The notes under the pieces are model-generated. The model was not told the origin of the DNA. It saw nothing but the letters and a program-made list of their open reading frames with translations, and did not search any database. Shown in pieces: positions 25,923 to 41,263 of a stretch of 52,590 nt of DNA (its first letter is position 1; the number at the start of each line of letters is the position of its first letter). Source of the stretch: a bacterium (GTDB lineage: Bacteria > Patescibacteriota > Minisyncoccia > Minisyncoccales > JAUYFS01); the NCBI GenBank assembly GCA_030689665.1, contig JAUYFS010000014.1:1-52590 (forward strand). The letters run 5' to 3'. The translations under genes were made by a program, and so were the position numbers.

Positions 25923-26079
25923 TAATAAATAAAGGTAAATATTCCTTAGCGACAAGAGTGGGCTTCTACCACTAATTCCATGTCAGGCTGAACCTTGACA
26001 TAGGCTTGACACAGGATTGTAAAACGATAATATAAAAAGAAGAGATACAAAGACAAATTAAAATAATAAAAATAAAAAT

Positions 26080-26367
26080 ATGTCATTTTTTTCTCAAAAA
26101 ATAAAGAAACAGGAAGAAACCCAGATAATAACGACTGGTCTAAAGGTAGAAGATTTAATAAAAAAAAATGTTCTCGAAGAACTTAAAAATAAGTTTAGTG
26201 GAAATGAAAGAATAGATACAACTGCAGTTGTATTTCATGTTATGTCTAAAGATGATAAAAACATAGCGTCAATCGTAATAGACCACAAGTCTCCAAAACA
26301 GCTAAAAGATGGGGTTGCCATTATAACTTCAAGTAAAAGCGAGGCGTTGAAAAGGTTTATAAAATAA
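26080..26367 (+). CDS. Hypothetical small protein (95 aa)
   Basis: An ORF with a plausible upstream promoter (TTGACA near 26007). I recognised no family. Confidence 0.4.
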   Translation: MSFFSQKIKKQEETQIITTGLKVEDLIKKNVLEELKNKFSGNERIDTTAVVFHVMSKDDKNIASIVIDHKSPKQLKDGVAIITSSKSEALKRFIK

Positions 26368-26381
26368 TATTTTAAAAACAT

Positions 26382-26732
26382 ATGGAAAAATCAACGGGAA
26401 ATGCAACAATTTATGAAGAAACATCTGAGGGATTTAGAGTAGACACCAATGAATTATTTTCTAATGTTACTATAACTAGGTGGGAATATGAGTCGCTAAG
26501 GAACGAAATTGATGCACTTCAAAAATCATTAAGATTAAAAGAGTGTAATTTTCGAGAAATAAGTGATGCCCAAGCCAGAAAAGACATACACCAGTTTATT
26601 ATTCAAAAGAAGAAAGAGGGTCTTAAGTCAATAAGGACAATCAATATAGTCTCTTCATTGGGTTTGCCCGCTAATCAAGTTGAAGAGATAATAAATAAAC
26701 TTATTAAGAGAAAAAAAATAGTTGAAGTATGA
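26382..26732 (+). CDS. Hypothetical protein with a C-terminal winged-helix-like segment (116 aa)
   Basis: The C-terminal DIHQFIIQKKKEGLKSIRTINIVSSLGLPANQVEEIINKLIKRKKIVE looks like a wHTH. The stop overlaps the next start (ATGA). Confidence 0.4.
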   Translation: MEKSTGNATIYEETSEGFRVDTNELFSNVTITRWEYESLRNEIDALQKSLRLKECNFREISDAQARKDIHQFIIQKKKEGLKSIRTINIVSSLGLPANQVEEIINKLIKRKKIVEV

Positions 26733-26947
26733 GCGCCTACTTTCCACTTACTAACCATGGTTGGTTTAAATTAGAATCTATTTTGGGAGACAAAGTTATA
26801 ATTCATGCGGTTAGGATAGAAAAAACCAAAGGAAGGATTACTAGTCATCACAAAAATCATAAAGTAGAAGAAGCTAAGGCAACCGGAAGCGTCGAAATTA
26901 CGTCTAGAATTTTTTTACAAGAGTTGGATATAACAAAATACTCATGA
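26729..26947 (+). CDS. Hypothetical small protein (72 aa), translationally coupled to the preceding ORF
   Basis: 4-nt ATGA overlap with 26382-26732. I recognised no family. Confidence 0.35.
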   Translation: MSAYFPLTNHGWFKLESILGDKVIIHAVRIEKTKGRITSHHKNHKVEEAKATGSVEITSRIFLQELDITKYS

Positions 26948-27118
26948 AGAAATCCCTGCAAAAACAGGCATTTTTTGACTTTCTAAACCTTACTATCTGC
27001 AAAGGCGAGAAAACAACACCTCAAACTAGGTTTGCATCAAAAGAGGACGGGTTTTATTAGACCTTGATTTTATTTTTTTAAAATTTTAATATTAATAAAG
27101 GTGCAAATTTTAAATTTT

Positions 27119-27168
27119 TCCCGCCACATATATTTTATTTTAGTAGGCGGGATCCCGACAAGTCGGGA
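27119..27168 (+). repeat. REP-like double hairpin (CCCGCC...GGCGGG followed by TCCCGAC-AA-GTCGGGA)
   Basis: TCCCGCC (27119-27125) pairs with GGCGGGA (27146-27152). TCCCGAC (27153-27159) pairs with GTCGGGA (27162-27168). It shares TTAGTAGGCGGGA with the copy at 39993-40006. Confidence 0.8.
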
Positions 27169-27188
27169 CAAATAATTAATTTTTAAAT

Positions 27189-28889
27189 ATGAAAACCAAT
27201 AAAAACCTGTTAGCTGCAATTTTAGTTATTTCAATTTTTGCTTTAACGCCAGCCGCAACCACAAAGGCGGTTAGCGTAAAGGATTTGGTCTCAAAATTAT
27301 ATTTAATTCAAAAACAGCTTGATGCTTTAAGCCAACAAGCATCCAGTTATTATGCCCAGCAAGCCGCTGTTGTTCAAAAAGCGCAAGAGGAGGCGGTTGA
27401 AAAAGCCAAACAAACAAGCGCTGGCGATGGCAAAACAACTGTTCAAGAAAATTCAGAATCAGTTGAAAAAAAATCTGACACAGGAGAAGAAAAAACAACA
27501 ATTGATTACGGCGAAGTGGCAAGGCTTCAGAATATGGTTGATTTGGGTTATCAAAATTGGAGATTGGTGCCAGGGCTGGTTTTAAAAAATGAGGGATTGA
27601 ATTACAGATTTTTAAAAGAAGAACTTGAAACCGCCAAACAAATTTCTTATTTTTCAAATATCGGGGTTGCGAAATACAGCGCGATTCACGACTCAAAAAT
27701 GTGGACCATTACTTTGATTCAGCCGACAATAGGGGTGGGAAAAATTTGGACTGTTTCCGAGACCAAAATAACTGACGACTTAAAAACCGCTCCTTGCGGC
27801 AATTACGGGGATTTAAACAACGATAAGTTTTTAACTCAGGAAGACGCGGATATTTTATTGAACTATATTTATCTGGGCGGTTCATTAACCAATGAACAAA
27901 CAATAAACGGCGATATAAACAATGACGGAAAAATAGATTTGTTTGATTCAATTTATTTAAAGAAATTTTTAGACGGAAAAGTTTCCAAATTCCCGGTTTG
28001 TTTCGGAGATTTTAGCGTTGTTTTGCCGGAAGAAAAAGAAACATTAATCAATGGCAGCAGTTATACGATAAAATGGACAATACCCAAGGGCGTTGAATCA
28101 TATTTGATTGATTTTTCCATAAAAGACAGCAAAAAAGAATATCCGGTTGATAAAATTTATGTTAATCCTTTTTCAGAATATGACGAAAACGGGGTGATTG
28201 TTATTGGCTATAATTGGCAAATCAAGGAAAAAATTGGAACTGATTACAAAATAAAACTGGATGTCAAAAATTTTGACGATGAAGTTTTACTCACGGCTGA
28301 AAGTAAAAAGAGTTTTAAAATTGAGAACATTTCCAGCGATAAAAAATTTCCACCATGCGGGAATTACGGGGATTTAACCTATAACGGCTACATTGACTTT
28401 TTAGACGCTGCTTTAATTAGGAACTATGTTAAAAAAATCGGCTATTTGTCCCAAAAACAAAAGGGAATTTCTGATTTAAACAATAACGGCAGAATAGATG
28501 CCGGGGACGCAAATGTAATTGATTTTTATCTTCAGGGAAAAATTTCCAGTTTTTTGACTTGTTCAAGCAAAACGACAAAACTCGATTTAAGCGTGGAAAA
28601 AGTTTCTTTTAGCGACGAGGGAATGGCTGTTATTGAACTGAAAAATTCAGCCAGCGTTAAAATAGGAAATAACGAAATTATTACTGGATGGATTTACAAA
28701 GACAACATTTTTGCCAAAGAATTTTCAGTTACAGGAATTGATTTTTCAAAAAGCGGGAAAGCAACTATCCAAGAAAATATTGGCGAAGTTGCGGAAAAAA
28801 TTCTTGTTTTGATTGACCCTTTGAATTCAATAGCTGAAGAATCGGAAAATAACAATTATTTTGTTTTTGAGAAAAAAACAACTAAATAA
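27189..28889 (+). CDS. Secreted multidomain protein with two Cys-bracketed dockerin-type (EF-hand-like) modules
   Basis: Signal peptide MKTNKNLLAAILVISIFALTPAATTKA. The dockerin repeats GDLNNDKFLTQEDAD...GDINNDGKIDLFDS span nt 27792-28001. GDLTYNGYIDFLDAA...SDLNNNGRIDAGDAN span nt 28353-28562. Each starts PCGNYGDL and ends at a Cys. Confidence 0.75.
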   Translation: MKTNKNLLAAILVISIFALTPAATTKAVSVKDLVSKLYLIQKQLDALSQQASSYYAQQAAVVQKAQEEAVEKAKQTSAGDGKTTVQENSESVEKKSDTGEEKTTIDYGEVARLQNMVDLGYQNWRLVPGLVLKNEGLNYRFLKEELETAKQISYFSNIGVAKYSAIHDSKMWTITLIQPTIGVGKIWTVSETKITDDLKTAPCGNYGDLNNDKFLTQEDADILLNYIYLGGSLTNEQTINGDINNDGKIDLFDSIYLKKFLDGKVSKFPVCFGDFSVVLPEEKETLINGSSYTIKWTIPKGVESYLIDFSIKDSKKEYPVDKIYVNPFSEYDENGVIVIGYNWQIKEKIGTDYKIKLDVKNFDDEVLLTAESKKSFKIENISSDKKFPPCGNYGDLTYNGYIDFLDAALIRNYVKKIGYLSQKQKGISDLNNNGRIDAGDANVIDFYLQGKISSFLTCSSKTTKLDLSVEKVSFSDEGMAVIELKNSASVKIGNNEIITGWIYKDNIFAKEFSVTGIDFSKSGKATIQENIGEVAEKILVLIDPLNSIAEESENNNYFVFEKKTTK

Positions 28890-28898
28890 AGCCTAAAA

Positions 28899-29633
28899 AT
28901 GGATGGAAAAATTCATCTGTCAGTGATAATTCCCGCTTATAACGAACAAGAAACCTTGCCTGCCACGCTTGCGAGCGTTAGCGATTATTTAAAAAAGCAA
29001 AATTTCAGCTATGAAATTATTGTTATTAATGATGCTTCCAAAGATAGAACTGCAGCAGTTGTCGGAGAATTGCTGGGGAAAATTGCCAACTTAAAATTGA
29101 TTGATGAAAAAATCAATAGAGGGAAGGGCAGTTCAGTAAAAAAGGGAATATTAGAAGCAAGTGGAGATTTTCGTTTGTTTATGGATGCTGATAATGCGAC
29201 AACAATAGACCAGGTTGAAGGAATGTGGCCTGAATTTGAAAAAGGAGCTGATGTTGTCATTGGTTCGCGCGACATAGAAGGCGCTGATATTGTCGTTGCC
29301 CAGCCCTGGTGGAGAATTTTAATGGGCAATATTTTTAATTTAATTGTCCAGATAATTGTCGGGTTGTGGGGCATAAAAGACACTCAGTGCGGATTTAAAG
29401 GATTTAGGGCGGCAGTGGCTGAGGATATTTTTAGCAGATGCAAAATAGACAGATGGGCTTTTGATGTTGAGGTTTTGTTAATCGCGAAAAAATTCGGGTA
29501 CAAAATAAAAGAAATTCCAGTAAGGTGGGTTAATAATCCCAACAGCAAGGTAAGTTTTAAGGGTATGGTAAAAATGCTCCTTGAGGTTTTAAAAATCAGA
29601 TGGAACGCAATTAAAGGAGCTTATGGGCGATAA
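28899..29633 (+). CDS. Family-2 glycosyltransferase (polyprenyl-phosphate hexosyltransferase-like)
   Basis: LSVIIPAYNEQETL, EIIVINDASKDRT, and the FMDADNAT DxD motif. Confidence 0.8.
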   Translation: MDGKIHLSVIIPAYNEQETLPATLASVSDYLKKQNFSYEIIVINDASKDRTAAVVGELLGKIANLKLIDEKINRGKGSSVKKGILEASGDFRLFMDADNATTIDQVEGMWPEFEKGADVVIGSRDIEGADIVVAQPWWRILMGNIFNLIVQIIVGLWGIKDTQCGFKGFRAAVAEDIFSRCKIDRWAFDVEVLLIAKKFGYKIKEIPVRWVNNPNSKVSFKGMVKMLLEVLKIRWNAIKGAYGR

Positions 29634-30672
29634 TTTTTTTATGGCGAAAAAAAATTTTGCCAAATTTCCTTCAGAACTAAGGCAAGAGCCAATTTCTCAA
29701 AAATGGGTTGTTATTGCCACTGGCAGGGGCAAAAGGCCTGAAATGTTCAAAAAAGACAAGAAAAATTCCACAGAAGACAACTCAAGGGATTGTCCTTTTT
29801 GCGATATTTCCACGCAGGAAAAACCAGTCCTGATTTTATATAAAGGCAAAGAAATACGACCTAGCAATAATCCAAAAAACTGGACAACAATTGTTTTCCC
29901 AAACAAATTTCCAGCGTTTTTGGTTTCAGACAAACTTGAAGAAAAAAAAGTTGGGCCTTACACAAGGATTAACGGCGCTGGCTATCACGAAGTTGTTGCG
30001 ACCAGAGACCACAAAAAATCCATGGGCCAGTTTTCCGCTTCTCAAATTAAAGAAGTAATTGATGTCTATCAAAAAAGATATTTAGACCTTGCTGACGAGA
30101 AATTTGTAAATTATATTCATATTTTTCATAATCACGGACATACTGCCGGCGCTTCAATAAGTCATCCTCATTCTCAAATTATTACAACCCCGGTTTCAGA
30201 GCCTGAACTTCATCTGGTTTTAAAAAGATTAGAAAATTATTATCAAGAAAATAAAAAATGCCTTTATTGTGAGATTTTGGAATGGGAAAGAAAAGAGAAA
30301 AAAAGAATAGTTTTTGAGAACAAGGAATTTGTTGTTTTGTGCCCCTATGCTTCAAGGAGCGCCTTTGAAACGAGAATATATCCCAAGAATCACGAGCCCT
30401 ATTTTGAAAGAATAACCGAAAAATCAAAAAATTATTTGGCGCAAGCGTTTAAAACGACGCTTTATAAAATTTATAAAGGATTGAATAACCCTGATTATAA
30501 TTTTTTTCTGCACACAGCGCCTTGCGACGAAAAAGAGTATCAATATTACCACTGGCATTTTGAGTTTTTTCCAAAAACATCAATTTCCGCCGGTTTTGAA
30601 CTTGGCGCCAAAATTCATGTTTCCAGCATAGAGCCGGAAAAAGCTGCGGAATTTTTAAGAAAAATAAAGTGA
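29623..30672 (+). CDS. galT: Galactose-1-phosphate uridylyltransferase-like (GalT/HIT family) nucleotidyltransferase
   Basis: CPFC zinc motif and SHPHSQI active-site His-Pro-His. The start could instead be ATG 29641. Confidence 0.75.
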   Translation: MGDNFFMAKKNFAKFPSELRQEPISQKWVVIATGRGKRPEMFKKDKKNSTEDNSRDCPFCDISTQEKPVLILYKGKEIRPSNNPKNWTTIVFPNKFPAFLVSDKLEEKKVGPYTRINGAGYHEVVATRDHKKSMGQFSASQIKEVIDVYQKRYLDLADEKFVNYIHIFHNHGHTAGASISHPHSQIITTPVSEPELHLVLKRLENYYQENKKCLYCEILEWERKEKKRIVFENKEFVVLCPYASRSAFETRIYPKNHEPYFERITEKSKNYLAQAFKTTLYKIYKGLNNPDYNFFLHTAPCDEKEYQYYHWHFEFFPKTSISAGFELGAKIHVSSIEPEKAAEFLRKIK

Positions 30673-31400
30673 AACAAATAATCGCAAACTGGAAAAATTA
30701 CCCCAAAAGTTTCAAAGAGGTTTTCGGATTGGCGGAAAAAATTGAAAGAAAATTGAAAGAGATTAACAACGACATTAATTTTGTTTTGTGTCCGCCAGGC
30801 GTTTTTATCAGGGATTTGGCAAAAGAATTTCCCAAAATAAATTTTGGCTCCCAAAATTTATTTTGGGAAGAAAAAAAAATCTGCACTGGAGAAATTTCCG
30901 GAAAAATGCTCAAGGATTTGGGCTGTAAATTTGCCATTGTCGGGCATTCGGAAAGAAGAAATTTTTTCAAAGAAAGCGACGAAATTATCAATAAAAAAAT
31001 AAAAATCTGCTTATCAAACAAAATTATTCCGATTTTCTGCGTTGGAGAGACATTTGAGGAAAATAAAAATCAGCAGACATTTTCAGTTCTAAAAAAACAA
31101 ATTGAAAGCGGTTTGAAAAACATCAATTTAAAAAATAAAGAAATTTTTATTGCCTATGAGCCAATTTGGTCAATAGGAACCGGAAAAGTCGCCCAAATAG
31201 AGGTTTTGAAAAATATAAGAGATTATTTAAAAGATATTGCCAATTTAAAAGGTTTCAATAAAGTAAAAATCATTTATGGCGGCAGCGTTGACGCCAAAAA
31301 TGTCGCCCAGATTTTAAACCAAGCTGGTTTTGACGGATTATTAATAGGCAAAAACTCTTTTAATTTTAAAGAGCTGGAAAAAATTTTAAATAACATTTAA
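30669..31400 (+). CDS. tpiA: Triosephosphate isomerase
   Basis: ANWKNY, VGHSERR, YEPIWSIGTG, YGGSV. Confidence 0.93.
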   Translation: MKQIIANWKNYPKSFKEVFGLAEKIERKLKEINNDINFVLCPPGVFIRDLAKEFPKINFGSQNLFWEEKKICTGEISGKMLKDLGCKFAIVGHSERRNFFKESDEIINKKIKICLSNKIIPIFCVGETFEENKNQQTFSVLKKQIESGLKNINLKNKEIFIAYEPIWSIGTGKVAQIEVLKNIRDYLKDIANLKGFNKVKIIYGGSVDAKNVAQILNQAGFDGLLIGKNSFNFKELEKILNNI

Positions 31401-31407
31401 AATAAAA

Positions 31408-31463
31408 GCATGAAGCATGAAGCATGAAACATGAAACATGGAGCATGAAACATAAAACATAAA
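31408..31463. repeat. Eight GCATGAA/ACATGAA/ACATAAA heptads, the reverse-complement orientation of the 8616-8671 array
   Basis: gcatgaa x3, acatgaa, acatgga, gcatgaa, acataaa x2, in an unbroken 7-nt register. Looser TCAATTT-type heptads follow to about 31491. Confidence 0.8.
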
Positions 31464-31563
31464 ATAATTTTCAATTTCTAATTTTCAATTTTAATTAAAT
31501 TTTCAATGAATTAATTTTCAAACAAAATAAAAAGCTTAAAAATTAAAAATTAAATATAAATAT

Positions 31564-32328
31564 ATGCAATTCTTTAAATCTCCAATTACTGGTTTTGTTC
31601 TCGGAACAACAATATCAATATGTCTATTGAGCGTATCCATATTGTTTGCCTGGACTGAACCAACATTGAACCCTCCTCAAGGCAATATTTCTGGTCCAAT
31701 CAATATCTCAAACACAGGACAATCAAAGGCAGGAGGATTAATACTTAATACCGGAGGAGCCGCTGTCGGCCTTGTTGTTGATAAAGGCAATGTGGGTATA
31801 GGGACGGCTAATCCAAAAAACAAACTGGAAGTGACTGGAATAGGCAATGTTGTATTTAACACTTCTGGTAATGTGGGGATCGGAGTAATGAGTCCTGGCT
31901 ACAAGCTTCATGTCAGCGACGCCATACATGCATCGGGCGATATTAAAACAGATAAAGATGTTTGCACCAATTTAGGATGTCTGAATGAGTTAATCGCTAT
32001 CGTTAATCCCTGGCTTGTTAACGGCATTCATAGAGCCAGCCAGTGTTCTGCTATTGGCGGTAATGTTGTGTATGTGTCCCCGGGTATGGCGGTTTGTCAA
32101 TATCCTTCATCAAGTTGTCCATCTGGATGGAGGTCATACTTGAATTGGAGTACAACACAATCGGTTCCATACTACTTTCATGACAGCCGGCGGGGACCCT
32201 GGTGGACCTGTCCGGGTGTAGCTGGGCATGTATGGTCAAATAATGCTGTTGAATGCGAGCCGACAACTCCCAGTGATCCTCCGAGATGCGGAAGGTGTTG
32301 TCCGATTGTCCAAATCGGCTGCTATTAA
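31564..32328 (+). CDS. Membrane-anchored or secreted protein: N-terminal TM plus FAWTEP motif, GNVGIG repeats, Cys-rich C-terminal domain
   Basis: MQFFKSPITGFVLGTTISICLLSVSILFAWTEPTLNPPQGN; GNVGIGTANPKNKLEV and GNVGIGVMSPGYKLHV. The last ~120 aa are Cys-rich and noticeably more GC-rich. Confidence 0.6.
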   Translation: MQFFKSPITGFVLGTTISICLLSVSILFAWTEPTLNPPQGNISGPINISNTGQSKAGGLILNTGGAAVGLVVDKGNVGIGTANPKNKLEVTGIGNVVFNTSGNVGIGVMSPGYKLHVSDAIHASGDIKTDKDVCTNLGCLNELIAIVNPWLVNGIHRASQCSAIGGNVVYVSPGMAVCQYPSSSCPSGWRSYLNWSTTQSVPYYFHDSRRGPWWTCPGVAGHVWSNNAVECEPTTPSDPPRCGRCCPIVQIGCY

Positions 32329-32333
32329 TTTTT

Positions 32334-32531
32334 ATGAAAACAAAAATATCTCAAAATCTAGTACTCGTTTTCAGCATTATAGCAACCATATTCATTGTTA
32401 ATTTTCTTGTTTTCGCCTGGACAGAACCTATCTCCAGTCCGCCCAGCAATAGAAGGGAAAATGGGGTCAACTCTATTTTTTCGGTAAATGGGGTTTTGCC
32501 CTTGCTTTTCATCTTAAAAATTCGCTGTTGA
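32334..32531 (+). CDS. Short paralogous fragment carrying the same TM plus FAWTEP leader (possible pseudogene remnant)
   Basis: MKTKISQNLVLVFSIIATIFIVNFLVFAWTEPISSPPSN, then an unrelated short tail. I chose ATG 32334 rather than 32286, which overlaps the previous gene. Confidence 0.4.
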   Translation: MKTKISQNLVLVFSIIATIFIVNFLVFAWTEPISSPPSNRRENGVNSIFSVNGVLPLLFILKIRC

Positions 32532-32557
32532 ACATCGGGTGTCCAACAGCGTTATTT

Positions 32558-32580
32558 ACAACTCATCAGAGTTGTTTTTT
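32558..32580 (+). terminator. Rho-independent terminator
   Basis: ACAACTC-ATCA-GAGTTGT followed by TTTTT. It is preceded by a second hairpin, CGCTGTTGAACA...TGTCCAACAGCG (32523-32551). Confidence 0.7.
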
Positions 32581-32630
32581 AATTAAGGTTTTGCTATTTT
32601 GAAGTAATTGAGATTTTTGATTTGATTATT

Positions 32631-34454
32631 ATGCTATCTTCGGAAATTAGAGAAAAATTTAAAAAATTTTTTGAGAAAAGAGGGCATAAAATTATTCCTT
32701 CTTCGTCTTTAATACCAGCAGATGAAACGGTTCTTTTGAATTCCGCCGGAATGCAGCAATTTGTAAAATATTTTACCGGAGAAAAAGATATTTTAGAAGA
32801 TTTTGGAAACAGGCATTTAATTTCCATGCAAAAATGTTTTAGAACAGGTGATATTGAAGAAATTGGCGATGATACCCACAACACTTTTTTTGAAATGTTT
32901 GGAAATTGGTCAATTGGGATAGATGAAAAAACAGGTTATTTTAAAGAAGGAGCCATAAAATTAGCGCTTGAATTTTTTGTGGAAACAATGGGTTTGGACA
33001 AAAAAAAGTTTTGCGTAACTATTTTTAAGGGCGAGAATGAAATTCCAAGAGACAATGAGTCCTTTGAAATTTGGCAAAAAAACGGCATTCCCAAAGAAAG
33101 AATCAGGGAATTTGGAGCCAAAGACAATTTTTGGGGACCAACAGCTTTGACAGGCCCTTGCGGCCCTTGTTCGGAAATTCACTATGACAGGGGCGAAAAA
33201 TTTGGCTGCAACGCTCAAAATTGCGGCCCTAATTGCGAAAAATGCAAAAGATTTGTGGAGATTTGGAACCTGGTTTTTATGGAATATTATAAAAACGCAG
33301 ACGGTTCCTATAAAAAACTTCCGCAGACAAATGTAGATACTGGTTTTGGTTTTGAGCGACTGACAGCAATAATGCAAGACAAAAGTTCTGCTTATGAAAC
33401 AGATTTGTTTTATCCGATTATCCAAAAATTAGAAAAGATTTCCAACAAAAATTATAATGATTTTAAAAAAGAATTCAGAATTATTTGCGACCATTTAAAA
33501 GGTTCAATTTTTTTGATTGCTGATGGGGTTGAGCCGAGCAACATCGGCAGAGGATATGTTTTAAGGAGAATTTTAAGAAGAGCAATAGGAATCGCGTTTA
33601 GATTCGGATTTTCTGAAAATTGGTATCAGGACTTAATAAAAATTTTTCAGGACATTTACAGCGAGTTTTATAATGAAATAAACAATCCAAAAATAAAAGA
33701 AATTATCAAACAAGAAGAGAATAAATTTTTAAAAACCATTGAAAATGGGCTAAAAGAATTTGAAAAAATAATAGCGAATGGAATTCGATATATCAGTTTA
33801 CCAACTGCTATAAAGAACGAAAAAAATATCAGCGCGGAAAGTTCATTTTACCTTTACCAGACATATGGTTTTCCGGTTGATTTTATGAAAGATTTGTGCG
33901 CTGAAAAGAATATCGGATTTGATGAAAAAGGATTTAAAGAAGAATTTAAAAAGCATCAGGATATTTCCCGCGCAGGAGCTGAAAAAAAATTCGGAGGGCT
34001 GGGAAAAACAGCTGATTACAAAGCAGTGAAATTGCACACAGCAACTCATTTATTGCACTGGGCGCTAAGGGAGATTTTGGGAAAAACAGCGCAACAAATG
34101 GGTTCTGATATTACCAACGAACGCCTGAGGTTTGATTTTGCTTATCCAAGAAAAATAACCAAACAAGGACTGGAAAAAATTGAGGATTTAGTTAATAATA
34201 AGATAAGGCAGGGCCTGGATGTTAGAAAACAAGAAACAACCTATAAAAAGGCGATTGAATCAGGCGCCTTGGGATTTTTTAAAAACAAGTATCCGGAAAT
34301 TGTAAATGTTTATACAGTCGGCGATTTTTCAAAAGAAATTTGCGCCGGTCCGCATATTTCAAACACAGCGGAATTGGGGAATTTCAAAATTTTAAAAGAG
34401 GAATCATCAAGCGCTGGAGTAAGAAGAATTAAAGCAATATTAAATGAATTTTGA
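32631..34454 (+). CDS. alaS: Alanyl-tRNA synthetase, short form (catalytic plus editing domains, no C-Ala domain)
   Basis: MLSSEIREKFKKFFEKRGHKIIPSSSLIP, the editing-site HTATHLLHWAL and CAGPH. It is ~607 aa, against ~870 aa for canonical AlaRS. Confidence 0.9.
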   Translation: MLSSEIREKFKKFFEKRGHKIIPSSSLIPADETVLLNSAGMQQFVKYFTGEKDILEDFGNRHLISMQKCFRTGDIEEIGDDTHNTFFEMFGNWSIGIDEKTGYFKEGAIKLALEFFVETMGLDKKKFCVTIFKGENEIPRDNESFEIWQKNGIPKERIREFGAKDNFWGPTALTGPCGPCSEIHYDRGEKFGCNAQNCGPNCEKCKRFVEIWNLVFMEYYKNADGSYKKLPQTNVDTGFGFERLTAIMQDKSSAYETDLFYPIIQKLEKISNKNYNDFKKEFRIICDHLKGSIFLIADGVEPSNIGRGYVLRRILRRAIGIAFRFGFSENWYQDLIKIFQDIYSEFYNEINNPKIKEIIKQEENKFLKTIENGLKEFEKIIANGIRYISLPTAIKNEKNISAESSFYLYQTYGFPVDFMKDLCAEKNIGFDEKGFKEEFKKHQDISRAGAEKKFGGLGKTADYKAVKLHTATHLLHWALREILGKTAQQMGSDITNERLRFDFAYPRKITKQGLEKIEDLVNNKIRQGLDVRKQETTYKKAIESGALGFFKNKYPEIVNVYTVGDFSKEICAGPHISNTAELGNFKILKEESSSAGVRRIKAILNEF

Positions 34455-35712
34455 CAGCCAAAAAAACAGAAGGTTCTCGGATATTTATATTCCTTCGCAA
34501 GAAGAAAAAACAGAAGCAACCTTAAAAGAAAATATCGGCAGGCGAGGAATAAAAATATCCTTAGGAATAAATTTGAAAAAAATAATTTTTTTAGCGGTCT
34601 TATTGGGAATTGCCAGCGTTTCTTTTGCCTACGCTTTTAACGTGAAATTAAATATTCAACTAACGCCAATTAAAGAAGATTTTTTAATTGAGGAAAAAGC
34701 GACAATTGAAAAATCAGCGCAAGCCAGCGATATTGAAAACCTTAAACTATCCAGCAAACCAATAGAAGTTGAAACTATAAAAAGCGAGTTATATCAAAGC
34801 GCGGGAAATAAAATATCCGAAACAAAAGCGACAGGAATTATAAGGGTTTATAACAATTATTCCGAAACGCCGCAGGCACTGGTGGCGACAACCAGATTTC
34901 TTTCGTCTGACGGCAAACTTTTCAGGACAACAAAAAAAGTTTCCATTCCCGGAGCTGAATATAAAAATGGAAAATTAACTTCCAATTACGCGGAAGTAAC
35001 CGTAGAAGCGGCAGAGGCAGGCGAAGAATACAATATTGAACCAGCCACATTTTCTATACCTGGTTTTGCCGGCACCGCTAAATACACTGGTTTTTACGGA
35101 AAATCATTGAATAAAATGACAGGCGGTTCCAGAAAAACAATTAAATTTGTTTCCAAAAACGATATCAGCAAAGCAAAAAACAGCTTGGAAAAACTTGTTT
35201 TTGAAGAGGGTTTGAAAGATTTGCAAAAACAGGTTCCAGATGGATATGAAATTATTCAGGGCAGTTTGGAACAGGAAATAATCAAAGACCAGTCCAATGT
35301 AAATGAGGGACTAGAGGCTGATAATTTTAGTTTAAAATTCAAAGCAAAATCAAAAGCGCTTATCATATCAAAGGAAGAATTAAATAATCTGGGTAAAAAA
35401 CTGGCTTTTAAGCGTTTATCTCAGGACAAAGAAATAAACCCGTCTTCCTTGGCTGTAAATTACGGAATTTCTGATTTTGATTCAGGCAAGGAAAAAATTG
35501 AAATTAATTTGGAGATAAAAGGAGAAAGTTTTACAAAAATAAACACAGACGCTTTATTTGAAGAAATAAAAACCCAAAGATTAAGTTCTTTGGAACAAAT
35601 TCTAAATGAAAAAAATAATTTTGCCGGCATTAAATTTGAAAAAACTCCTTTTTGGCTCAGCAGGGTTCCTTTAGACAAGGGAAAGGTCAAAATTGAGGTA
35701 AATCTTGACTAA
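34444..35712 (+). CDS. Hypothetical single-pass membrane protein
   Basis: One TM (IIFLAVLLGIASVSFAYAF) after a charged N-terminus, then a large extracytoplasmic beta-rich region. 11-nt overlap with alaS. Confidence 0.55.
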   Translation: MNFDSQKNRRFSDIYIPSQEEKTEATLKENIGRRGIKISLGINLKKIIFLAVLLGIASVSFAYAFNVKLNIQLTPIKEDFLIEEKATIEKSAQASDIENLKLSSKPIEVETIKSELYQSAGNKISETKATGIIRVYNNYSETPQALVATTRFLSSDGKLFRTTKKVSIPGAEYKNGKLTSNYAEVTVEAAEAGEEYNIEPATFSIPGFAGTAKYTGFYGKSLNKMTGGSRKTIKFVSKNDISKAKNSLEKLVFEEGLKDLQKQVPDGYEIIQGSLEQEIIKDQSNVNEGLEADNFSLKFKAKSKALIISKEELNNLGKKLAFKRLSQDKEINPSSLAVNYGISDFDSGKEKIEINLEIKGESFTKINTDALFEEIKTQRLSSLEQILNEKNNFAGIKFEKTPFWLSRVPLDKGKVKIEVNLD

Positions 35713-35754
35713 AAAATGTAAAAATTCCTAGTGCTGTTTACAAAATAATTCTTA

Positions 35755-36069
35755 GCGCGCAGAAACACTGCTTTCAAAAACCGGGACTATTTTGCCCCAG
35801 CGAGGCAAAATGTCCCTTGGTTCTCAACCTCGCTCGCCTCGCTGGAACTTTGGCGAAGCGGGCTCGCTCAGGCAGATCCTTCTTGAAAGAACGTTTCGGA
35901 ATCCCGTTGAGCTTGGTCTTGAAGCGAAGCGAAAAGTCAACGGGATGAGAACCGAGCCTGGCGCTTGCCGCTGGAGCAAGCGAACAGGCGGTTCTGAAAA
36001 GAAGGAGCTGCCGGAGCGCCATGCCCGCTCGGTTTCCGAAGCATTTTTTTCAGCAGTGTTTCTGCGCGC
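35755..36069 (+). ncRNA. Large GC-rich structured RNA candidate, class unknown
   Basis: A perfect 18-bp closing stem: GCGCGCAGAAACACTGCT (35755-35772) with AGCAGTGTTTCTGCGCGC (36052-36069). Internal helices: 35783-35796/35804-35816, 35902-35910/35937-35945 (9 bp), 35962-35968/35976-35982, and 35819-35826/35946-35953. GC content is far above the surrounding DNA. The ORFs here on both strands look non-protein-like. Confidence 0.6.
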
Positions 36070-36190
36070 GCCTCGTTGAAACTACAGCGAAACGGGCGCG
36101 AAAATTGTAAACAACGCTATTCTAGTTTTCCAAATGGCTATCTGGAAGCTTGGGTTAGAAATTGTAAACAATGATAGAAAATCTTATATC

Positions 36191-36219
36191 TTGACTAAAA
36201 AAACAATTTCTGCTAAATT
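36191..36219 (+). promoter_or_regulatory. infA/alpha-operon promoter (TTGACT-17-TAAATT)
   Basis: TTGACT at 36191-36196, a 17-nt spacer, and TAAATT at 36214-36219, 12 nt before the infA ATG. Confidence 0.5.
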
Positions 36220-36231
36220 TATATTATTCTG

Positions 36232-36450
36232 ATGTCTAAAGGAGAAATCAAAAAATACGGCATTGTAACAGAGGGTCTTCCAGACGCGAGATTTAGAGTT
36301 GAATTGGAAGACGGCAAATCAATAATCGCCTATATGGCGGGAAGGTTAAAAATACACAAAATTAAAATTTTGCCCGGAGACGCCGTGACTGTTGAATTTT
36401 CTCCTTATGATGAAAACAGGGGCAGGATTGTATATAGAGGAAAAAGATAA
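36232..36450 (+). CDS. infA: Translation initiation factor IF-1
   Basis: [51 protein letters not shown]. Confidence 0.97.
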
Positions 36451-36461
36451 TTCAGCAAAAA

Positions 36462-36578
36462 ATGAAAGTCAGGTCTTCGGTAAAAAAAATTTGTAGAGAT
36501 TGTAAAATTGTGCGTCGAAAAGGACGCATTTATGTTATTTGCAAAAAAAATCCGAAACACAAACAAAGGCAGGGTTAA
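36462..36578 (+). CDS. rpmJ: 50S ribosomal protein L36 (38 aa; not in the supplied ORF track)
   Basis: Manual translation gives [38 protein letters not shown]. It sits in the canonical position between infA and rpsM. Confidence 0.93.
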
Positions 36579-40564: not shown

Positions 40565-41263
40565 ATGTTAAAAGAACTTATTGATAATTTTTACAAAGAA
40601 AGAGAAAAAAATCGCCAACAGACAAAGTTTTGGATTACAGACGCTGGTCGTTGTCCGAGAATGATTTTTTTCAAATTTAAAAACGCTCCCAAAAAGGGAA
40701 TTGACCCGAGAATTCTTAGAATGTTTGACCATGGCGATTATATTCATCGCCTTATTTTGAACGCCTTGTTTAGCGTTGGCATAGTCAGGGCTTCTGAAAT
40801 TAACATACCCTCTCAAGAATTAATTTCAGGAAGAGCGGACGCGATTATAAGCGTTGGCGACGAAATGTATGTTCTGGACATCAAAAGCATGAACAGCATG
40901 GTTTTTAGGGGCTTGGAAAAACCAAAAGAAGAGAACGAGAATCAACTCCAACTTTATTTGCATTATTTCAAAATTCCCAAGGGCATTCTTTTATATGTCA
41001 ATAAAGATACCCAGGATTTAAGGGAGTTTTTTATTGAAAAAAATCAAGAAATAATTGATGCTTTATTAAAGGAATTGCAGGACTTGAAAAATAAAATAGA
41101 CAGCGACGAAACTCCTGCCGCTTTGGCTGATCGCTCAAAGAATTGGCAATGCCAGTATTGCCAATTTAAAGATATTTGTTCTTTGATAGGCGAGGATAAT
41201 TTAAGCTGGGATAGCGCCAAAAACAAAATAGAAGCCCTAGAAACTAAAAAAGAGGACCAATAA
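40565..41263 (+). CDS. Stand-alone Cas4/RecB-like PD-(D/E)XK exonuclease with a 4-Cys Fe-S cluster signature
   Basis: N-terminal Cys (DAGRCPRM), RADAI...VLDIKS, QLQLY (QxxxY), and the C-terminal CQYCQFKDIC (C-x2-C-x5-C). Confidence 0.75.
   Translation: MLKELIDNFYKEREKNRQQTKFWITDAGRCPRMIFFKFKNAPKKGIDPRILRMFDHGDYIHRLILNALFSVGIVRASEINIPSQELISGRADAIISVGDEMYVLDIKSMNSMVFRGLEKPKEENENQLQLYLHYFKIPKGILLYVNKDTQDLREFFIEKNQEIIDALLKELQDLKNKIDSDETPAALADRSKNWQCQYCQFKDICSLIGEDNLSWDSAKNKIEALETKKEDQ

Follow-up and report, generated by a model that had tools for sequence, protein, structure and literature searches.

A GC-rich island upstream of infA in a Patescibacteria genome is probably the structured core of a MITE-like mobile DNA element

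Repeats of the Correia, ERIC and RUP families are intergenic, multicopy sequences bounded by terminal inverted repeats (TIRs), which form stable hairpins when co-transcribed and can affect the expression of neighbouring genes. Bacterial miniature inverted-repeat transposable elements (MITEs) have been described more generally (PMC3184786). Among them, bcr1 of the Bacillus cereus group is a MITE of ~155 bp without a transposase, which has 5-bp direct repeats and a cruciform-like predicted fold kept by compensatory changes, whereas IMU is a MITE of 288 bp that an ISSod9-type transposase moves in trans, with a 5-bp target duplication (PMC3184786). REPINs are hairpin repeats that likewise show compensatory changes in their stems (PMC3116915). 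Here we describe a locus from a Patescibacteria genome (GenBank assembly GCA_030689665.1, contig JAUYFS010000014.1, 52,590 nt, hereafter the window), in which a GC-rich island at 35755-36069, just upstream of infA, had been proposed by an initial annotation as a candidate large structured RNA of unknown class. Our analysis indicates that this GC-rich island is likely to form the core of a MITE-like mobile DNA element, one that is non-autonomous and depends on a transposase supplied in trans, probably a DDE enzyme.

The island lies within a sequence that is extra in the window when compared with its relatives. On a Logan contig of a relative found via the infA protein (L002), the flanks are 88-96% identical to the window, and the upstream stop codon is followed by 33 nt and then by infA. 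Using blastn, L002 positions 1-1043 corresponded to window positions 34674-35716 and L002 positions 1026-1394 to window positions 36185-36553, so that 35717-36187 is extra. This 471-nt insertion sits between two copies of a 15-bp direct repeat, ATCTTGACTAAAAAA (35702-35716 and 36188-36202), which occurs twice in the window and only once in the empty sites L002, L049, and L052. Orthologues at 85% and 78% protein identity (L049-L057; from JGI, ENA, and Logan) had the identical 33-nt gap and target sequence, and each of the four related lineages examined had an intact 33-nt empty site between the upstream gene and infA. Two Logan contigs that are 100% identical to the window (L003 and L001) independently covered both junctions. 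They break off within the core, at positions 35764 and 36023, which is the outcome to be expected of a sequence repeated in the sample.

The left direct repeat contains the TAA stop codon (35710-35712) of the upstream gene, which encodes a 422-aa GlxA-domain protein whose closest named relatives are from Candidatus Nealsonbacteria/Parcubacteria (~36% identity). The right direct repeat carries the −35 box TTGACT (36191-36196) of a promoter-like site for infA at 36191-36219. The stop codon was thus kept in the left copy and the −35 box in the right copy, and both survived because 13-15 bp of the target were duplicated, the first two bases of the repeat possibly belonging to the element. As the initial annotation had observed, the gap is non-coding; it extends for 519 nt from this stop codon to the ATG of infA at 36232. 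Its account of the composition was also borne out, with a GC content of 0.565-0.575 in 200-nt windows against ~0.32 in the flanks. Measured per 150 nt, the value of 0.607 is the top peak of the whole 52.6-kb window, which has a mean of 0.357.

We then looked at whether the sequence occurs elsewhere. No second copy was present within the window, and none was detected by nhmmer among the loci examined. The open frame across the island, annotated in GenBank as an 89-aa hypothetical protein (Q8O39_01290; 35810-36079, + strand), is a spurious open reading frame (ORF), and its translation provided a handle for finding other copies. Besides Q8O39_01290 itself, it retrieved three further "proteins" with 86-96% identity, all located on one 5,963-nt contig of the same metagenome-assembled genome (MAG); one of them is complete, and the other two, at the ends of the contig, are partial. 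A fourth (P0128), obtained via cluster look-up, came from the terminus of another contig in this MAG, 24,568 nt in length. Copies are therewith present on three contigs of the MAG, and since the partial copies lie at contig ends with overlapping sequences, we count the distinct loci as 3-5. The 5,963-nt contig (proteins MDP2820772 to MDP2820780) both begins and finishes inside element copies, with an N-terminal fragment (P0003) at one end and a C-terminal fragment (P0004) at the other. The two overlap by 30 identical residues, which fits a circular or tandemly repeated unit of ~6 kb with 2-3 copies, and P0128 matches this variant.

A profile built from these translations detected one more relative, P0007, on a JGI contig (L048) with 43% GC. 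Over 353 nt, the corresponding DNA (L048:1500-1855) shares 78% identity with the window element; it lies between RtcB and TrmO/archease genes, that is, in a different organism and a different context. The element runs in the same direction as its neighbouring genes in the window and antisense to them in L048. The JGI gene call for P0007 (L048:1452-1879) reads an in-frame TGA as W, and translation with table 11 does not give the query; this is either a spurious ORF call with an alternative code or a sign that the contig comes from a TGA-recoding lineage. These copies on other contigs, together with repeated insertion and absence from the site in four related lineages, refute the idea of a single-copy host RNA gene. 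Further searches at the DNA level were negative: exact scans with the inner 18-nt repeat described below returned 23 GTDB loci and 21 JGI metagenome loci, all of them single chance matches in high-GC genomes without extension; blastn of a 486-nt block against phages and plasmids returned nothing; and the same was true of four scans of viral contigs, one with the 18-mer and three with conserved blocks.

The ends of the element were defined by aligning the window copy with the L048 copy. Both DNA copies start with 5'-TGTAA exactly where their flanks diverge. The L048 copy runs 5'-TGTAAG...CTTGCACA-3', giving TGT...ACA termini, and is flanked on both sides by TTAAC, a direct repeat of 5 bp (7 bp at most). 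The TIRs are composite, consisting of an AT-rich outer part and a GC-rich inner 18-mer. On the left, the outer part (35717-35754) starts with 5'-TGTAAAAATT, and contains TGTTTACAA at 35735-35743; its alignment with the left L048 end (TGTAAGTATT..GTTGTTTACA) begins at the very first base. The motif TGTTTACAA occurs three times in the window, each time inside the element. Inverted repeats in the window pair 35713-35743 with 36162-36192 (31 nt, 71%) and 35729-35743 with 36105-36119 (87%); in L048, TGTAAGTATTCTCAGCGTTGTTTACAC matches the reverse complement of GTGTAAACAACGCTCGTATTTCTTGCACA. The inner part is GCGCGCAGAAACACTGCT at 35755-35772 on the + strand, with its exact reverse complement at 36052-36069, the latter being conserved in the translated copies P0002 and P0004 (..SAVFLRA..). 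These are the only two matches in the window even when three mismatches are allowed, against a chance expectation of 0.02, and extension through the A5/T7 run enlarges the inverted repeat to 26 nt at 88% identity by the repeat finder. The initial annotation had described this perfect 18-bp stem and its extension correctly and had regarded it as closing the island; the stem is real, but it is the inner part of TIRs that run beyond the island rather than the outer boundary.

A canonical element has a length of ~350-360 nt. The L048 copy (~355 nt) is of this size, and the window copy has 471 nt between its direct repeats. On the right side of the window copy, the inner repeat is followed by a 30-nt insert (36071-36100) and a copy of the right end (36101-36132; AAAATTGTAAACAACGCTATTCTAGTTTTCCA), which ends in CA and is the counterpart of the true right terminus of L048. 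A 26-nt spacer (36133-36158), absent from the empty sites and without a match elsewhere, then leads to a second copy of the right end (36159-36188; AAATTGTAAACAATGATAGAAAATCTTATA). This outermost copy directly adjoins the right direct repeat, and the right ends of P0002 (..VNNAGNSYI..) and P0004 (..VNNARIFYI..), when back-translated, match it.

The initial annotation had judged the island ORFs to be non-coding, and this was supported by searches of 5.8 billion sequences, in which their only protein relatives were other copies of the element. It had also raised, against its own proposal, the possibility that the island is a decayed fragment of a foreign, higher-GC protein gene. Several frames are indeed open, an ORF across the island is annotated by both GenBank and JGI, and a 40-nt segment that includes the 18-mer matches an RsmB-like gene of a Ruminococcaceae MAG at 90%. 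The homology, frame, and codon evidence nonetheless effectively refuted this possibility, which we consider negligible. No Pfam domain was matched by an island ORF, and the 82-aa minus-strand ORF, compared with 1.84 billion representatives, gave only two low-complexity matches in giant proteins. A 2-nt indel places the upstream halves of the window and L048 copies in different frames, and L048 has an in-frame TGA. Downstream of the indel, 17 non-synonymous and 3 synonymous codon differences were counted, distributed 9:10:4 over codon positions 1:2:3, so that third positions change least. As for the RsmB match, the 18-mer plus 22 flanking bases matched a conserved part of an RsmB/NOL1-like methyltransferase gene (..NEIIPKRAETLLSNLER..) in Ruminococcaceae MAGs over 40 nt at two loci (L015:7240-7279 and L040:2027-2066). 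By tblastn, the similarity stopped at RAETLLS (~8 residues), and we judged the match to be due to chance because nothing similar was found beyond this short stretch.

Next, the fold of the core was examined. The minimum free energy (MFE) fold had −162.8 kcal/mol on the + strand (z = −8.2) and −164.3 kcal/mol on the − strand (z = −8.4). In this fold, the inner repeats form the closing stem P1. A 59-nt block identical in the window and L048 (35768-35826; alignment columns 14-72) includes the hairpin H1 (35783-35816) with its loop. A long-range stem, P2, pairs 35866-35892 with 35991-36017 and was recovered by the repeat finder, the MFE fold, and covariation. Between its arms are the hairpins H3 (35901-35946; ATCCCGTTGA ... 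TCAACGGGAT) and H4 (35956-35989; GCCTG GCGCTTGC ... GCAAGCG AACAGGC), both present in the MFE fold, H4 showing one C-G to U·G change between the copies. Most helices drawn in the initial annotation were therefore found again both in the MFE fold and by the repeat finder (35783-35816, ~35832-35863, 35901-35910/35937-35946, and 35956-35989). The GAGCG/CGCTC helix (36014-36030) was not used in the MFE fold, nor were the proposed alternative pairings of GAACC with GGTTC, in place of which 35865-35892 pairs with 35991-36018.

Conservation of the fold was assessed on an alignment of the window core with L048 from which the 30-nt insert had been removed (287 columns, 38 differences). RNAalifold gave 90 pairs, six of them with compensatory double changes, and this number fell to 0-1 when the partners were slid by 1-3 columns. 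Evaluated on the window MFE fold (104 pairs), all seven pairs that had changed on both sides remained Watson-Crick in L048: 35759/36065 in P1 (G-C in the window, C-G in L048); 35872/36011, 35874/36009, and 35877/36006 in P2; and 35901/35946, 35907/35940, and 35908/35939 in H3. Several of these changes are transversions. When the same substitutions were re-placed at random, the mean was 0.98 such pairs, and the probability of seven or more was 5e-5. The L048 copy takes the same architecture (z = −6.5 and −5.9), and the two cores share invariant blocks such as GGGACTATTTTGCCCCAGCGAGGCAAAATGTCCC. The check for covariation suggested in the initial annotation thus found compensatory changes, in a comparison of two sequences and with a signal that hairpins at the DNA level would also give. 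These seven compensatory double changes out of seven indicate that the branched fold has been maintained in evolution.

A maintained fold with compensatory substitutions in three separate helices is also what would be seen if the core were a functional structured noncoding RNA (ncRNA) riding on, or captured by, a mobile element, whether as a guide or regulatory RNA for an enzyme acting in trans or as a cis-acting stabiliser or terminator of an mRNA. Instead of folding back simply on itself, the core has an asymmetric, branched architecture, and the invariant blocks take in unpaired segments and a hairpin loop, both of which are in line with an RNA. We therefore compared the two strands. Each strand has five G·U pairs, and the MFE values in this comparison were −161.4 (+) and −162.9 (−) kcal/mol. 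One-sided changes in stems comprised four G·T, tolerated on the + strand, and five A·C, tolerated on the − strand, and so showed no strand bias. No conserved promoter was found inside the element by a promoter scan and inspection of both copies. The sole strand-specific feature of the core is a small hairpin (36027-36042) followed by T7 (36044-36050) on the + strand, which resembles a terminator and is conserved in L048; it is a weak feature, as the terminator scan did not flag it. Differences between the 30-nt mini-hairpins described below (C-G to T·G, T·G to T-A, and G·T to G-C) also keep pairing on the + strand only.

Weighed against these points are the symmetry of the strands in energy, G·U count, and one-sided changes, the lack of a promoter-like site, the opposite orientations in the window and L048, and the dispensability of the element, which four related lineages do without. 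The assignment to no known RNA class made in the initial annotation held, as Rfam had no match at gathering score in the whole window. At E ≤ 10 only noise was returned (miRNA, snoRNA, and CRISPR-DR at E 0.2-10), and the lack of an Rfam family at E ≤ 1-10 is a further point against an RNA. Of the proposed "large structured RNA", then, the branched fold is real and conserved, but nothing favours an RNA product over DNA hairpins, and we regard a functional ncRNA as unlikely. These tests favoured neither strand, and the fold may act as DNA or as RNA. One scenario would account for the two classes of substitution: the double changes may reflect divergence between active source elements whose fold was maintained, while the single changes may be neutral decay after insertion, which would explain why they carry no strand information.

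The large structured ncRNAs OLE, GOLLD, ROOL, and HEARO/omega-RNA offer the nearest comparison on the RNA side. Like the island, they form GC-rich islands in AT-rich genomes with many helices and covariation, and some of them are associated with mobile elements. Unlike them, the element has no Rfam match at E ≤ 10 and no strand signal, has TIRs and direct repeats at its boundaries, and varies in its presence between close relatives. A bolder version of the ncRNA reading, which we hold to be rather improbable, is that the core is a new mobile structured RNA of ~290 nt, delimited by the invariant blocks and covarying helices, which would spread in a vehicle bounded by TIRs among Parcubacteria-like and other uncultivated microbes and would serve in trans as a guide or scaffold for the recombinase or nuclease of the element or act as a cis-regulatory module, with the mini-hairpins as a second mobile layer. 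If the RNA reading were true, the element would represent a new class of mobile structured RNA.

The window copy contains two short nested hairpins, both GC-rich and exactly 30 nt long. A 5-nt repeat bounds each of them, and the placement of each is ambiguous by 5 nt. The first (35837-35866), flanked by GCTCG at 35832-35836 and 35862-35866, is the "bulged helix" of the initial annotation; the second (36071-36100) is flanked by GCGCG at 36066-36070 and 36096-36100. The two units are homologous, with 28 of 36 positions identical (78%) against a null maximum of 22. The first is missing from L048 and from P0002, which lacks PRWNFGEAGS, and is present in P0003 and P0128. The second is missing from L048, P0002, and P0004; in the translations of the latter two, ..FLRA runs straight into KN(YF)VNN, i.e. 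AAAAAT..GTAAACAAT. This pattern of presence and absence among copies indicates that the mini-hairpins are secondary insertions or duplications inside the element. No third copy was found in the window or in the other loci examined, and the idea that the core is an array of such units was rejected, as only these two units are homologous. Mini-hairpins of this kind recall REP units or the GC clusters of yeast mitochondria, and they resemble a further, very small module of insertion or duplication lodged within the MITE-like element.

Conserved hairpins raise the question of whether the element derives from a hairpin-dependent single-stranded DNA transposon, either a PATE of the IS200/IS605 type or a REPIN-like element, moved through its hairpins by a Y1/HUH transposase (TnpA or RAYT). 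As in REPINs, the hairpins are kept by compensatory changes (PMC3116915); the left and right interiors are asymmetric; and the nested 30-nt hairpins resemble REP units in size and GC-rich composition. Hairpins of this kind are, however, not diagnostic of membership in these groups. REPINs depend on a Y1 transposase and have neither long TIRs nor target duplications, and IS200/IS605 elements also lack both, whereas the element has inverted ends of 27-55 nt and direct repeats at both loci. There is no common tetra- or pentanucleotide 5' of the left end (AAAAAA versus TTAAC; ..CTAAAAAA versus ..CATTAAC), and no TnpA or RAYT gene was present among the window ORFs scanned. An origin of this type has in our estimation only a slim chance of being correct.

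Returning to the MITE-like element, the TIRs, the lack of a conserved frame, and the lack of a transposase together identify it as non-autonomous and MITE-like. Its other features agree with this: the direct repeats derive from a single target copy, no gene is carried, the length is below ~500 bp, the element is multicopy, and it is present or absent among relatives. The single-copy target is documented by the empty sites at the window locus, and no empty site is available for the L048 locus. Among described MITEs, IMU is similar in size class (~290 nt between the ends), in having TIRs, a core without genes, and a stable predicted fold, and in its 5-bp duplication, as in L048. It differs in that its cognate insertion sequence (IS) is known and its transposition has been demonstrated experimentally, whereas for the present element no partner IS was found among the sequences searched, and blastn against plasmids revealed no sequence similarity. 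The likeness to bcr1 is that of a non-autonomous repeat with short direct repeats (5 bp, as in L048), a compensated fold, and a distribution that differs between close relatives. In contrast, bcr1 is ~155 bp long and occurs in Firmicutes, while the present element has ~350-470 nt, no sequence similarity to bcr1, a more branched and GC-rich core in an AT-rich Parcubacteria-like genome, and a duplication of 13-15 bp in the window. bcr1 itself is known to be transcribed. Correia, ERIC, and RUP repeats share with the element their intergenic location, TIRs, and multiple copies; they are near-perfect foldbacks of 100-160 bp with 2-bp (TA) or otherwise short duplications, whereas the element is 2-3 times larger and has an asymmetric multi-helix core, the invariant 59-nt block, and the nested mini-hairpins.

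Several observations weigh against this interpretation. No transposase was found among the 10 window ORFs scanned, the sole large minus-strand ORF has no such domain, and no autonomous partner was found in the window or in the phage, plasmid, and viral collections. The direct repeats are 13-15 bp long in the window but 5 bp (≤7) in L048, a difference not expected of a single transposase with a fixed stagger. The right side of the window copy is irregular, with its two right-end copies. The core is asymmetric instead of being a classic two-half MITE foldback and, with the invariant 59-nt block, would also fit a functional RNA. The comparison at the DNA level involves two copies, those of the window and L048, the remaining ones being known as translations. 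Finally, the exact 18-mer scans of GTDB and JGI gave no further copies, meaning that the family is rare or that its inverted repeat is variable.

The long duplication in the window was the only reason to consider a miniature derivative of a casposon-like element integrated by Cas1. Casposons of family 2 have 14-bp duplications and TIRs, and no casposon-derived MITE is described in the same source (PMC4779613). The repeat at L048 measures just 5 bp, and no cas1 context was noted in the window. The TG...CA termini also point elsewhere, since such termini are typical of DDE transposons. We consider a casposon derivative very improbable.

For the MITE-like element, the following course of events is shown. 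In the window lineage only, a copy landed between the GlxA-domain stop codon and the infA −35 box, and this copy later gained the two 30-nt mini-hairpins and the second right-end copy. As to the enzyme, we infer a transposase encoded elsewhere, which would bind the ends containing TGTTTACA (5'-TGTAA...TGTTTACA) and move the element in trans; the TG...CA termini and the 5-bp duplication in L048 would fit a DDE enzyme of the IS3/IS481/Tn7/Mu type. As for the fold, it may help the element to propagate or persist, acting either at the DNA level, in single-stranded or cruciform form, while transposition takes place, or as a stable RNA structure after read-through transcription.

Some further features of the window were noted. 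No tRNA, tmRNA, or Rfam family at gathering score, ribosomal-protein leaders included, was found in positions 1-52590, despite the presence of a ribosomal-protein/secY/infA/rpoA cluster. Between map and infA (~26000-35712), ~9 kb of non-ribosomal genes encode a dockerin/CARDB protein, a GT2 glycosyltransferase, GalT, TIM, a hypothetical protein, AlaS, and the GlxA-domain protein, and this block is kept in relatives (L049 and L052). A PD-(D/E)XK/Cas4-like nuclease gene at 40565-41263, after rpsI, also keeps its position in relatives, and the window showed no CRISPR or cas1 context. The gap before alaS (32337-32561) measures ~290 nt against ~86 nt in L052, and the extra ~210 nt do not align to relatives. 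Within it, AGCGTTATTTACAA (32548-32561) is one mismatch away from the end motif and was considered as a solo remnant of an end; because it overlaps a terminator hairpin conserved in relatives, the likeness is probably due to chance.

These results show how a candidate for an orphan structured RNA in a genome of the candidate phyla radiation (CPR) type can turn out to be mobile DNA, and they guard against mis-annotation at such loci, where GenBank and JGI call a protein and GC-based screens would call an RNA. They point to an active or recently active family of non-autonomous transposons in a tiny, streamlined genome, a setting in which such elements are thought to be scarce, and one whose landing in the ribosomal-protein/infA cluster broke neither a gene nor a promoter. 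With its conserved fold and nested hairpins, the element provides a compact system in which to ask whether the folds of MITEs are selected as DNA or as RNA.

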